A DNA stretch of 64,000 nt from Bernardetia sp. ABR2-2B (GCF_037126435.1 NZ_CP147020.1:1779293-1843292); one strand, 5' to 3'; counted from the first letter of the stretch, positions 26,161-34,728 are shown. Numbers and translations: made by a program. Notes: generated by a model not told the origin, from the letters alone.

Positions 26161-26203
26161 TGTATTATTTTTTATAAATGAAAATATTAATGTACAAAAA
26201 AAT

Positions 26204-26236
26204 CCCAATACAAAAGAAATATTTTCTGTATTGGGG
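26204..26236. repeat. Hairpin CCCAATACA(A)..TGTATTGGG sharing the TCCCAATACAAA motif with the 34.66-kb palindrome
   Basis: 9-bp stem read directly. The motif AAATCCCAATACAAA is also present at 34661 and, as a half-site, at 28962. Confidence 0.6.
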
Positions 26237-26248
26237 TTTATATTTTAT

Positions 26249-26301
26249 CTAGCCTTTGTTGGTGTTTTAGCGAAGCGACACCAACAAATACACGTATAAA
26301 A
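26249..26301. repeat. 53-bp dispersed repeat containing the TTTGTTGGTGT...ACACCAACAAA hairpin (copy A)
   Basis: CTAGCCTTTGTTGGTGTTTTAGCGAAGCGACACCAACAAATACACGTATAAAA. Matches the reverse complement of 60641-60693 with 2 mismatches. Confidence 0.9.
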
Positions 26302-26350
26302 CCAATTTGAAAAACATATAAAAAAGAAAAGCTAAGAAAATAAGTTGCAT
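26302..26350 (-). pseudogene. Relic duplicate fragment of the adjacent membrane-protein gene
   Basis: CCAATTTGAAAAACATATAAAAAAGAAAAGCTAAGAAAATAAGT parallels gene-internal 26036-26082 (CCAATTTGGCAAACAAACATGAAAGAAAAGCTAAGAAAAGAAGT), including an exact 18-mer. No intact ORF. Confidence 0.4.
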
Positions 26351-26508
26351 TGGCATTTAGATGTTACTTTTAAGAAAGTGATTCAACAGTAAAAGCAGAA
26401 AACACAATTATAAATCTTCATTTGATAAGAAAATGGGCGTTATTTTCACTCAAAAAAAACTCTTCTAAAATTAGCCTCAGTCCTCTGACAAAAGATTTTA
26501 AATTTAGA

Positions 26509-27740
26509 TAAAAAAAAGCCATAATTGAGTTTCTCACAAAATTTTTCTCACAAAATTTTCTCAATTATGGCGAAAGCAAAGTATGCTTCTAGTGGTAAAG
26601 TTACAAAATTAGTTAGTGTTTTATCTTCTCATTTAAAAGGGTTTCATTTAGCCCGAGTTCAATTTATAGGTCTTTTTGTAATAGCTGTTATAAAGGTAGG
26701 TCTAGGAGGTTTAATTCAAATTGCAACTGCGTTTGAAAGGAATGTAGAATACAGTTCTTCTTTACGTCGTATAGAACGCTTTTTAAATTATTATGAGCTT
26801 GATTTTCAAGCAATTACTAATTTGATTATTTCCTTAGAAGGCATTGAACAATGGGAAAATATCGTACTGTGTTTGGATAGAACGAATTGGAAAGTTGGAA
26901 AAGAGCATATTAATATTTTGCTTCTCTCAGCAGCTCATAAAGGGGTATCTATTCCTCTTTGTTGGTCTGTACTTTCGAGGACAGGAAATTCAGCTACTCA
27001 ACAACGAATTGATTTGATAGAAGATTTCTTAAATCAATTTCCTAATTTATCTATTACTGCTCTTGTAGCAGATAGAGAGTTTATAGGTAAAAAATGGTTT
27101 TTCTATTTAGCTACAAAAAAATTTGATTTTGTAATGCGTATAAAATCTAACTTTAAAGCTACTAGAAAAGGGAAAACAAAGTCTATTGTAGCATGGTGTA
27201 GAGGGCTTTCGATTTCAGAAACCTATCAACTAGATGGAACATTTGTAGTCAATGAAGCAGAGGTATATTTATCTGTAAGTCGAACACAAAAAGGATATAT
27301 TTATTTAGCATCACCTGTTTTATTGGATAATATTTTTGAAATTTATAAACAACGTTGGGAAATCGAAACGTTGTTTAAAGCACTAAAATCACAAGGTTTT
27401 AACTTAGAAAATACAAAATTAACAGAACCAAATAAAATAGCTAAATTAATTGCTTTGTGTTCCATTGCCTTTGTTTGGTGTTACAAAGTAGGAGAATGGA
27501 AACATAAAAAAACAAAAATAAGAGTCTGTTCAAATGGATATAATGAATACTCTTTTTTCAGATATGGATTAATAGAAATTAAAAAAATACTCAATAATCC
27601 AATGACTAGTGAAACTAAATTTGATCAAAAAATTAAAGTTTTGTCAATGGAGTAAGAAAATTAGCTTAAACAGAAAAAGAAAAAAATTAAGTATGTTATG
27701 TTTAGAAAAACGAATAATTGTTTGAATAAATGGCTTTCTA
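26509..27740 (+). mobile_element. Putative IS element (IS4-like DDE transposase family), ~1.23 kb, with possible 8-bp target duplication ATTTAGAT
   Basis: Single transposase ORF. ATTTAGAT occurs at 26501-26508 and 27741-27748. Imperfect terminal inverted repeats AAAAAGCCATAATTGAG (left) versus the reverse complement of the right end GAAAGCCATTTATTCAA. Boundaries are inferred, not proven. Confidence 0.5.
26567..27655 (+). CDS. DDE transposase (DDE_Tnp_1, IS4-like)
   Basis: D in LCLDRTNW, D in ALVADREF, E in YKQRWEIETLFKALKS (Y..RW.IE..F..lK signature). ORF track starts at a TTG at 26525; the ATG at 26567 (MAKAKY) is more likely. Confidence 0.8.
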   Translation: MAKAKYASSGKVTKLVSVLSSHLKGFHLARVQFIGLFVIAVIKVGLGGLIQIATAFERNVEYSSSLRRIERFLNYYELDFQAITNLIISLEGIEQWENIVLCLDRTNWKVGKEHINILLLSAAHKGVSIPLCWSVLSRTGNSATQQRIDLIEDFLNQFPNLSITALVADREFIGKKWFFYLATKKFDFVMRIKSNFKATRKGKTKSIVAWCRGLSISETYQLDGTFVVNEAEVYLSVSRTQKGYIYLASPVLLDNIFEIYKQRWEIETLFKALKSQGFNLENTKLTEPNKIAKLIALCSIAFVWCYKVGEWKHKKTKIRVCSNGYNEYSFFRYGLIEIKKILNNPMTSETKFDQKIKVLSME

Positions 27741-27823
27741 TTTAGATTTTTGGCTAAATTGAATAAATTATATGCCCAGACTTTATATAGCTATAATTTA
27801 ACTGGCTAAATTAACTTGAATCT

Positions 27824-33236: not shown

Positions 33237-33261
33237 AACCATTATTCTGTAATTTTTCATA

Positions 33262-33305
33262 AAACCATATTTGACTTTTTTGTTAGATATGGTTTTACTA
33301 TTTTT
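33262..33305 (+). terminator. Rho-independent terminator after the MVP-like gene
   Basis: AAACCATAT / ATATGGTTT 9-bp stem, 16-nt loop, followed by TACTATTTTTAAT. Confidence 0.55.
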
Positions 33306-33328
33306 AATCAAAAAAAACACTCTACTTT

Positions 33329-34357
33329 ATGGAATTACAAGGAAATATTAATATTCTAACAAAAGATTTTAACTTAGATGAAATCACTCTTTTAGGTGTT
33401 AATCTTAATCAAAATAGCAATATATTATTAGACAAACTATCTATAACAGAAAAAGAGATTACTGGGAATAGTTGGGTTAATACACACAACGACGATTTTT
33501 ATTGTTATAGAACATCAGATAATAAAATTGTAGAATTTTTAATTAGAAAAGAAGGTTTAGACCCTTTGAAAATAAAAGAGGAGCAAGATATTGAGAATTT
33601 ATTTGGCAAAGCAGATTCTATAGAAAAGAAAAATAGTTGGCATTACTATTTCTATTCTAATAAGAATTTAGTTGTTTCTTGGCATAATAGAGATAAAAAA
33701 ATATGGGGTATTTATATTGGAAATACTAGAATTACTCCTACAATTTATACAGTCAAAGATTTTTTGGAGATTTATCTTCAATTCGTAGATTTAGTTCCAA
33801 AGCAATCCGAATGGAATGAAGAAGCTATTTCTTCTAATCCTCCTAGACTTTATAGATTACAACAACTTAAATCTTTAATGAAAGCCTTTGATATAGGAGA
33901 GAATTTATCAAAAGACTTTAAAAATGGAAGCTTTCTAAGAGGTAGAGGTGCATTCGAATATAAATTAATTAATAATGATGTAGAAAAATACGTAGATAAT
34001 TTAGAATCACAAAGCTATAAAGAACGAAAAAAACGGCAGTTAGAAGATTATAAAATACAAAATGGACGTTCCTTGTCATTTACATTTACAAAATTTCTAG
34101 ACGTAATAGAACGAGCAGACAACCTTTTAAAAATCAATAGTGGAGTGATGGAAGCTAGTACAATTATGGGAGGATATACTGTAAATAAAGTTTGGGATTT
34201 AGCTAATAGCATTGACAAAGAAAAACTAGATGAAGTAAAAGATTTACTATGTTCAATGATAGATTCAGAACAAAAAACCTTTTCACAAAAAATATTAACA
34301 GAAAAATACAATTTTCCAGATGTTGACTTAGAAGAAATTGATATGGACTGGTGGTAG
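33329..34357 (+). CDS. Hypothetical protein downstream of MVP-like gene (acidic/aromatic C-terminus ...EEIDMDWW)
   Basis: 342-aa ORF with ATG start 24 nt after the terminator. No recognisable domain. Confidence 0.45.
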   Translation: MELQGNINILTKDFNLDEITLLGVNLNQNSNILLDKLSITEKEITGNSWVNTHNDDFYCYRTSDNKIVEFLIRKEGLDPLKIKEEQDIENLFGKADSIEKKNSWHYYFYSNKNLVVSWHNRDKKIWGIYIGNTRITPTIYTVKDFLEIYLQFVDLVPKQSEWNEEAISSNPPRLYRLQQLKSLMKAFDIGENLSKDFKNGSFLRGRGAFEYKLINNDVEKYVDNLESQSYKERKKRQLEDYKIQNGRSLSFTFTKFLDVIERADNLLKINSGVMEASTIMGGYTVNKVWDLANSIDKEKLDEVKDLLCSMIDSEQKTFSQKILTEKYNFPDVDLEEIDMDWW

Positions 34358-34656
34358 ATTAGCAATCAGATAATAACTAGCTTTATTAGAGCAAAAGATA
34401 GATGAGTTATTGAGCAAAAAGTAATTACAAAATGCCTTTAGTACGAATTTAGATAGTTATGAATATATTCAAATAATTGCTAATAAACATAAAGACCATT
34501 TAGAATACACTTCAGAAACATCGCTAGACGCTACAACTGTTATTTTGCTCTTGCTTCGCAATCAAATTTATAAGAATCTCCCCAAGAAGATACAGTTGCA
34601 TAATTTACTCCTAGTAGAGTATTGATTTCACGTTAAAAAGAAGTATTCATATACAT

Positions 34657-34694
34657 AAAAATTCCCAATACAAATTAATTTGTATTGGGAATTT
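34657..34694. terminator. Perfect 18-bp palindrome AAATTCCCAATACAAATT|AATTTGTATTGGGAATTT; bidirectional terminator downstream of sdhB
   Basis: Read directly, T tract follows. 35 nt below the sdhB stop at 34729. Shares TCCCAATACAAA/TGTATTGGG with the 26204-26236 hairpin. Confidence 0.7.
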
Positions 34695-34728
34695 TATTTT
34701 TACATTCTACAAGAGTAAACTAAACTTT

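Follow-up and report, generated by a model that had tools for sequence, protein, structure and literature searches.

A segment with a major vault protein homolog beside the sdhCAB operon of Bernardetia sp. ABR2-2B is probably a rearrangement of native genes

Organization of the locus

The window analysed here is a stretch of 64,000 nucleotides from Bernardetia sp. ABR2-2B (NZ_CP147020.1:1779293-1843292), with positions counted from its first letter, in which a gene for a major vault protein (MVP) homolog lies between a membrane-protein gene, here called memb, and the sdhCAB operon. As listed in the first-pass annotation, which was made from the sequence alone, the segment carries yihY, a lipoprotein gene, a hypothetical open reading frame (ORF), the MVP homolog and its partner ORF, preceded by an insertion sequence (IS) and framed by two palindromic hairpins with a common stem, designated hp1 and hp2 (Table 1). 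That annotation had read the whole as an acquired island bounded by hairpins and marked by an IS and gene relics at its left edge. Comparison with relatives points instead to a lineage-specific chromosomal rearrangement of native genes accompanied by a partial duplication of the target, which we regard as the probable explanation.

Table 1. Coordinates of the features at the memb-sdhCAB locus
Feature	Position	Strand	Description
memb, membrane-protein gene	25633-26160	minus	175 aa; ATG at 26160, mechanical ORF reaches TTG at 26208; left flank of the site
hp1	26204-26235	minus	extra copy of the sdhB-type intrinsic terminator (predicted); 12-bp stem, 8-nt loop, T-run
REP-like (repetitive extragenic palindromic) element	26248-26307	none	dispersed palindromic element CTAGCCTTTGTTGGTGTTTTAGCGAAGCGACACCAACAAATACACGTATAAAA; fold -19.2 kcal/mol, z -4.1
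memb relic	26296-26429	minus	copy of the 5' ~45 codons of memb; includes ATG (~26429) and in-frame stops; direct repeat, 84%
IS4-family insertion sequence	26476-27656	plus	1181 bp; transposase 26570-27655
yihY/BrkB-family gene with native upstream region	27671-28954	plus	gene 27824-28954; Pfam PF03631
"Half-copy" AATCCCAATGTACAAA	28966-28981	plus	within the 34 nt that separate yihY from the convergent lipoprotein gene; not counted in the feature
Lipoprotein gene	28989-30050	minus	353 aa; signal peptide MKIYFALLFSLLFLISC, lipobox LISC
122-aa ORF	30152-30520	minus	no family match above cut-off
MVP homolog	30765-33236	plus	823 aa; MVP_shoulder and Vault_3 domains
Partner ORF	33329-34357	plus	342 aa; counterpart behind MVP in MNP-M8 (L003 12560-13588) at 83% aa identity
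Right-end spacer	34358-34657	none	300 bp, between partner ORF and hp2
hp2	34658-34695	both	sdhB terminator at the orthologous position (predicted); perfect palindrome, A/T runs on either side
sdhCAB operon	34729-38556	minus	sdhB 34729-35499, sdhA 35585-37519, sdhC 37726-38556; Pfam; right flank

An empty site in strain MNP-M8

The decisive comparison, already proposed with the first-pass annotation, concerns the gene order downstream of sdhB and at memb in related genomes, and it is provided by strain MNP-M8. In this strain L074 8460-13841 aligns with window positions 40117-34726, covering a 107-aa gene, an acetyltransferase gene and sdhCAB, while L074 14093-17325 aligns with 26171-22936, covering the memb gene, a thioesterase gene and a TPR gene, and the 251 bp between the two colinear blocks contain the terminator hairpin and a short GTTGGTG...CACCAAC hairpin. 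Because MNP-M8 is colinear on both sides of such a short gap, the approximately 8.2 kb present in the window (about 26458-34657) is, as far as alignment can tell, an insertion in the ABR2-2B lineage. The memb product shares 54.6% aa identity with the product of the 172-aa gene located directly downstream of sdhB in MNP-M8 and 27% with that of the gene at the same position in GCA_020630935, with a weak match in metagenome contig L147; a memb-like gene thus follows sdhB in three separate lineages. MVP was found next to sdhB in no relative examined. Among the relatives SdhB and SdhA are 95-98% and SdhC 73-86% identical to the window proteins, and the closest SdhC relative (86%) is encoded on a contig, L078, that stops within sdhA and hence does not cover the region downstream of sdhB. 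SdhC and YihY of the window are 100% identical to proteins recorded for ABR2-2B, whereas exact look-ups of its MVP and SdhB sequences in the gene-position collection returned no record, perhaps owing to differently annotated start codons or to a gap in the index.

Both hairpins are copies of the sdhB terminator

The pair of hairpins with a common stem reported in the first-pass annotation is real, the position of hp2 being corrected by one base from 34657-34694. hp1 has the sequence CCCAATACAAAAGAAATATTTTCTGTATTGGG and now sits behind the pseudogene relic with its T-run on the minus strand, whereas hp2 is a perfect 19+19 palindrome with arms AAAATTCCCAATACAAATT/AATTTGTATTGGGAATTTT. The stem common to both is CCCAATACA/TGTATTGGG; the exact 9-mer CCCAATACA occurs four times in the window, every copy being an arm of hp1 or hp2, and all three occurrences of TCCCAATACAAA lie within the same two hairpins. 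Folding energies are -16.2 kcal/mol for hp1 (z -4.1 against shuffles) and -22.1 and -20.2 kcal/mol for hp2 (z -6.5 and -7.3), and both are scored as terminator-like by prediction. hp2 lies 33 nt past the sdhB stop codon and carries T runs on both strands, which gives it the architecture of a bidirectional terminator; it occupies the orthologous position of the sdhCAB terminator, where the first-pass annotation had placed the right boundary. Repeated stems occur in three families among the 36 perfect 9-bp hairpins of the window, and in this respect the hp1/hp2 pair is not unique. The additional half-copy, placed at 28962 in the first-pass annotation, was rejected as a third boundary element, as it has no stable fold (z -0.74), occurs once and is not found in the 3' flanks of yihY or the lipoprotein gene in relatives.

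The nature of the hairpin became evident from its position in relatives. A scan of 185,579 species genomes with the pattern CCCAATACAAA-N(0-25)-TGTATTGGG, using exact stems, returned 66 scattered matches, of which two were in relatives, namely Bernardetia sp. OM2101 and Flexibacter sp. CG_4_10_14_3 (CG_4), in both cases directly after the sdhB stop codon; since this pattern demanded an AA following the stem, it missed variants like the MNP-M8 terminator, and the copy numbers are lower bounds. The OM2101 chromosome thus holds at least one copy by this pattern, and that copy is the sdhB terminator. Likewise, among 68 hits of a metagenome scan with exact stems, the only two on Bernardetia-like contigs (L142 and L147) are both sdhB terminators. 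Such scarcity in relatives, with most copies ending sdhB, speaks against the hairpin being simply the commonest terminator of the genome, an outcome that would have undermined any association with boundaries. Taken together, the hairpin is found immediately 3' of sdhB in six relatives or related contigs (OM2101, CG_4, MNP-M8, ERZ650164, L142 and L147), with a different loop in MNP-M8 and compensated stem changes in ERZ650164 and in GCA_020630935, where the terminator has drifted to ACCAATGCAAA/TTTGCATTGGT. Over seven sequences, 98.6% of the cells of the 10-bp stem are paired, changes on both sides occur in 4 of the 10 pairs, and at most 2 of 500 shuffles did equally well. Owing to this position after sdhB and to the maintained pairing with compensatory changes, the hairpin is best described as the predicted conserved intrinsic terminator of sdhCAB. 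It shares with intrinsic (Rho-independent) terminators the stem-loop of hp2 followed by T runs after the last gene of an operon, together with compensatory conservation.

hp1 belongs to the same type. With its flanks it is 93% identical to the CG_4 sdhB terminator over 55 nt and 84% to that of OM2101 over 81 nt, and its loop is of the type that follows sdhB in OM2101, CG_4, L142 and L147, while for hp2 the homology to OM2101 extends through the flank on the sdhB side as far as the stop codon. The resemblance of hp1 to hp2 is therefore attributed to descent of both from the sdhB terminator, with the stem kept by selection.

The left junction carries a pseudogene scar

The left junction bears on the origin of the second terminator copy. 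Starting from the ATG of memb, a 43-nt spacer ending in an A-run is followed by hp1, a 12-nt T-rich tract, the REP-like element and the relic. The relic noted in the first-pass annotation as a duplicate of part of the flanking gene is borne out by a direct repeat (26296-26345 versus 26030-26079, 84% identity, spacing 266 nt), by its colinear extension and by its in-frame stops. Its own spacer (26430-26457) again ends in an A-run, so that relic and spacer are colinear with the 5' end of the resident memb, its spacer and the A-run before hp1. The unit composed of memb 5' end, spacer, A-run and hairpin hence occurs twice: on the left it is complete up to hp1 at its end, whereas the right copy is cut by the cargo at the point where the hairpin arm should start, leaving relic and spacer (26296-26457) on one side and hp2 on the other. 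Accordingly, hp1 and hp2 are two copies of the sdhB terminator derived from a partial target duplication and not att-like sites, and this alignment puts hp1 some 220 bp away from the true left junction, on the outer side of the REP-like element and the relic.

The REP-like element belongs to a dispersed family with a GTTGGTG...CACCAAC core and a long form CTAGCCTTTGTTGGTGTTTTAGCGAAGCGACACCAACAAATACAC, present in three copies in the 64 kb. The copy at the junction is 93% identical over 60 nt to window positions 60635-60694, and a further copy lies at 49393-49429; others are found in B. litoralis (L001 15056-15097) and GCA_020630935 (L076 16365-16397), and short versions in MNP-M8 after sdhC (L074 10851) and between the sdhB stop and the terminator (L074 13849). 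This family resembles REP/BIME repeats in its copy number per 64 kb and its presence in other Bernardetia, unlike the CCCAATACA hairpin, which is apparently of low copy number and serves as sdhB terminator in the relatives examined, with a single OM2101 copy by the pattern used.

The IS4-family element is a passenger

An intact IS4-like element was correctly recognized in the first-pass annotation. Its transposase matches DDE_Tnp_1 (PF01609, E 3.5e-18) in Pfam and NF033591 in NCBIfam with 230.8 bits against a cut-off of 152; its terminal inverted repeats are imperfect (CTCAGTCCTCTGACAAAA / CTTACTCCATTGACAAAA, 14 of 18 matching), and it is flanked by a 9-bp target duplication, AAAATTAGC, at 26467-26475 and 27657-27665. 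Transposase, inverted repeats, target duplication and length are all those of an IS4-family member, although the element makes up only one part of the locus and did not cause the rearrangement. A "hairpin-repeat element" had been placed between relic and transposase; the hairpin, with an internal tandem repeat, exists (fold -21.4 kcal/mol, z -5.1), but it is not a separate element, as it lies within the IS at about 26518-26571 and covers the transposase ATG. From 27671 onwards, 6 nt after the target duplication, the sequence is again homologous to the region upstream of yihY in relatives. Neither a second IS copy nor a solo IS end was detected in the 64-kb window, including 34.3-34.7 kb, and no copy of the IS is present in the loci fetched from relatives. 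Because the element has its own 9-bp target duplication and the upstream region of yihY is continuous with that of relatives, it is a simple insertion into this region, a passenger rather than the mobilizer of the block.

The cargo genes are native to Bernardetia

Composition gives no sign of foreign origin, since neither the GC content (31.5% in the segment versus 32.4% in the rest of the window) nor the tetranucleotide profile deviates notably, the latter having an L1 distance of 0.108 and ranking 24th among 56 equal-sized windows (24 of 56 as deviant or more). Identities to MNP-M8 or Wsw4-3y2 amount to 92% for MVP, 83% for the partner, 74% for the lipoprotein and 89% for YihY, as compared to 98% for the thioesterase, 92.5% for the TPR protein, 78% for the acetyltransferase, 73% for SdhC and 55% for the memb product in the flanks; the cargo genes, 74-93% identical to Bernardetia orthologs, thus fall within the range of the flanking genes in pairwise identity. 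Across a wider set, YihY is 83-90% identical to Bernardetia orthologs, the lipoprotein 74-83% identical to the product of the gene adjoining MVP in MNP-M8, Wsw4-3y2 and GCA_020630935, and MVP 90-93% identical to about a dozen Bernardetia proteins, and at 59-72% it has hundreds of relatives across Microscillaceae and other bacteria. A published account of bacterial MVP homologs in Cytophagales does not analyse their genomic context (bioRxiv 10.1101/872010), and a literature search for Bernardetia together with major vault protein found nothing.

The cargo genes also share a neighbourhood elsewhere in the genus. In MNP-M8, Wsw4-3y2 and GCA_020630575 the order at the MVP locus is yihY(-), enolase, H+-PPase, FloA, a large regulator, a 188-aa gene, lipoprotein(-), MVP(+), partner(+) and an AAA ATPase. 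yihY adjoins the enolase, H+-PPase and FloA genes in Wsw4-3y2 and GCA_020630575, lying about 14 kb from MVP in Wsw4-3y2; FloA and AAA genes are near MVP also in B. litoralis and GCA_020630935, and FloA and/or AAA genes stand beside MVP in three lineages. In the window yihY(+) lies directly against lipoprotein(-), and the genes from enolase to the 188-aa gene are absent from the entire 64 kb. By this comparison, the cargo is a mosaic of two pieces from one native neighbourhood, with yihY inverted. The region of about 180 nt upstream of MVP (30591-30764) is conserved in relatives, whereas a stretch of about 465 bp around the 122-aa ORF (~30126-30590) has no counterpart in the fetched loci, homology being confined to 30044-30125 and 30591-30770; the right-end spacer shows no significant match in the fetched loci or elsewhere in the window. 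The partner ORF does not follow MVP in B. litoralis or GCA_020630935, and in Wsw4-3y2 no match to it was detected, its position being taken by a reverse-transcriptase gene, possibly of a group II intron (L005 12537-15837). The lipoprotein gene is the neighbour most often kept beside MVP (3 of 5 other genomes examined), while the 342-aa ORF is limited to one clade, being found in MNP-M8 among the relatives examined.

Hallmarks of mobility are lacking as well: Pfam, NCBIfam and PHROGs scans found no integrase or recombinase, the 64-kb window yielded no tRNA gene and no Rfam hit, and no meaningful match to the cargo proteins came from PADLOC or PHROGs, with no phage or defence hallmark. Given the typical composition, the orthologs in a shared neighbourhood of relatives and this absence of integrase, tRNA, phage or defence functions, the segment is most consistently read as relocated resident genes and not as DNA acquired from outside the genus.

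Proposed course of the rearrangement

In the ancestral order, sdhC-sdhA-sdhB was followed by the terminator hairpin, the membrane-protein gene, the thioesterase gene and the TPR gene. Native Bernardetia DNA of about 8.2 kb, composed of yihY with its upstream region and the lipoprotein-MVP-partner block, was inserted at the edge of the terminator distal to sdhB, with a partial duplication of the target such that the unit of memb 5' end, spacer, A-run and terminator came to be present twice and its right copy was split by the cargo. The IS4-family element later entered the yihY upstream region by ordinary transposition, generating its 9-bp target duplication. For the origin of the duplicated target two routes may be envisaged. 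In one, a tandem target duplication of about 270 bp, from approximately codon 45 of memb to the 3' region of sdhB, would have come first, and the cargo would have entered the sdhB-proximal copy between its A-run and its hairpin. In the other, a related strain with the cargo already beside sdhB would have supplied the DNA, with the sdh genes as homology anchor and an illegitimate join at the REP-like element, whose border with the relic shows a short ATAxAAxC overlap. The terminator copies are of different "allelic" types, hp1 with the REP-like element resembling MNP-M8 and CG_4 and the flank of hp2 resembling OM2101, and this difference and the lack of a REP-like element beside hp2 speak for the import route, the absence of a recombination switch in sdhCAB against it; neither route is preferred here. 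Homology-facilitated illegitimate recombination, which the import route would represent, is a described mechanism (PMC3240628), and the locus would resemble its products in having one end that runs seamlessly into sdh homology, another that is abrupt with possible microhomology, and a partly duplicated target; the likeness is no more than a mechanistic analogy.

Several observations weigh against a rearrangement of this kind or against one of its routes. A plain tandem duplication predicts a REP-like element in the sdhB-side flank of hp2, where there is none, and sliding-window identity across sdhCAB against four relatives shows no switch of nearest relative, as the import route would have it. 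The similarity between the spacer of the relic and that of the resident memb is weak (~55%). In GCA_020630935 a CCCAATACA-type hairpin stands right after an apparent tRNA gene (L076 4600-4716; the tRNA was called by eye), so that the motif is not strictly specific to sdhB. Copy counts of the hairpin, the IS and the MVP locus in ABR2-2B cover the 64-kb window. No intermediate arrangement was found, and any mechanism or order of events read from this single genome is tentative.

Other rearrangements around sdhCAB

The surroundings of sdhCAB are variable in the genus, and across six genomes the position behind the sdhB terminator is held by at least five different genes. In ERZ650164 the MiaE-TPR-thioesterase block is inverted against the sdhB terminator and lacks the membrane-protein gene (L077 13918-17607 versus window 22252-25561), which constitutes another breakpoint at this terminator. 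At the other end of the operon, the gene next upstream of sdhC codes for DAHP (3-deoxy-D-arabino-heptulosonate 7-phosphate) synthase/chorismate mutase in five other Bernardetia genomes or contigs (L073, L076, L077, L078 and L142); in the window this gene is found at 18688-19802, 19 kb from sdhC, and in both the window and MNP-M8 its place before sdhC is taken by the acetyltransferase gene (39059-39643) and the 107-aa gene. Displacement of the DAHP synthase gene is a second rearrangement, at the opposite end of sdhCAB. Another repeated palindrome, AGACCCTAAGGG...CCCTTAGGGTCT, is present in the sdhA-sdhB gap (35546-35579) and at 5443-5477, while in relatives the sdhA-sdhB gap holds other hairpins or none (compare L060 2774 and L142 4592). 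A Y1 (IS200/RAYT-type) transposase gene is located about 3 kb from the OM2101 sdhB terminator (L073 17033-17578).

Alternative explanations

If the segment were instead a horizontally acquired island, integrated site-specifically with the hairpins as att-like boundary repeats, its presence in ABR2-2B and absence from the same site in MNP-M8, the related repeats near both ends and the IS near one end would be accounted for, and these are features it does share with classical genomic islands. It departs from them in having no integrase or recombinase, no tRNA, no phage or defence protein and no atypical composition, and for each of the cargo genes Bernardetia has orthologs, identical at species level and part of the genus core, that share a neighbourhood elsewhere. 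Moreover, the repeats derive from the resident sdhB terminator as copies of it, and hp1 is cut off from the cargo by the REP-like element and the relic and lies outside the junction, while the IS has a target duplication of its own. The island is hence highly unlikely, and of the original suggestion of horizontal insertion or rearrangement, the insertion or rearrangement stands with the empty site of MNP-M8, whereas the horizontal part does not. Mobilization of the segment by the IS4-family element, as a composite transposon or by one-ended transposition, is scarcely credible. An intact element does sit at the left edge, but a composite transposon needs two bracketing IS copies, and here there is a single copy; the right edge shows no IS end, the 9-bp target duplication is clean, and the interrupted DNA is simply the yihY upstream region continuous with relatives.

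Among the remaining readings, independent membership of hp1 and hp2 in a dispersed REP-like family, flanking the segment by coincidence and without any local duplication, is unlikely. Palindromic repeats are indeed common here (GTTGGTG three times and AGACCCTAAGGG twice among the 36 perfect hairpins of the window), and both the hairpin after the tRNA gene of GCA_020630935 and the Y1 transposase gene near the OM2101 terminator would fit such a family. What speaks against it is that the DNA beside hp1 is itself duplicated and colinear at the left edge of the cargo, indicating a segmental duplication, that the stem word is found nowhere else in the 64 kb, and that the copies which exact-stem scans recovered from the OM2101 chromosome and from both Bernardetia-like metagenome contigs are sdhB terminators. 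The polarity might also be reversed, the arrangement of the window being ancestral and the block lost or moved in MNP-M8 and others; few genomes were compared and Bernardetia is heavily rearranged around sdhCAB. We consider this quite improbable, as the succession of sdhB and a memb-like gene and the position of MVP beside FloA and/or AAA genes each recur in three lineages, and the pseudogene relic and second terminator copy, scars expected on the derived side, occur only in the window. Finally, it is very unlikely that terminator or REP-type hairpins act as preferred substrates of a hairpin-directed recombination, for example by a Y1/RAYT-type transposase, that joins gene blocks at hairpin edges. 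If true, this would explain both the variety of genes that follow the sdhB hairpin and the start of the cargo at the expected hairpin arm; it is not needed, since selection on operon integrity would by itself yield breakpoints at a conserved operon end. A relocation of native genes thus remains the preferred reading, and the locus matches strain-specific chromosomal translocations or insertions in its moved native blocks, breakpoints at operon ends and terminators, scars and lack of a foreign composition signal, without any essential difference, the duplicated target with its terminator being a detail.

Implications for Bernardetia and its vault-protein homolog

The vault-protein homolog of ABR2-2B should not be called island-borne or recently acquired; as far as gene order and identities indicate, the Bernardetia MVP is a vertically inherited gene with a shifting chromosomal position. 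The lipoprotein gene and the 342-aa ORF, the only ones to recur beside it, offer a modest lead on the function of bacterial MVP. In a genus with high genome plasticity the event is ordinary in kind, and the locus provides an example of the reshuffling of gene blocks beside a conserved operon that is well documented by the empty site, the pseudogene relic and the second terminator copy.

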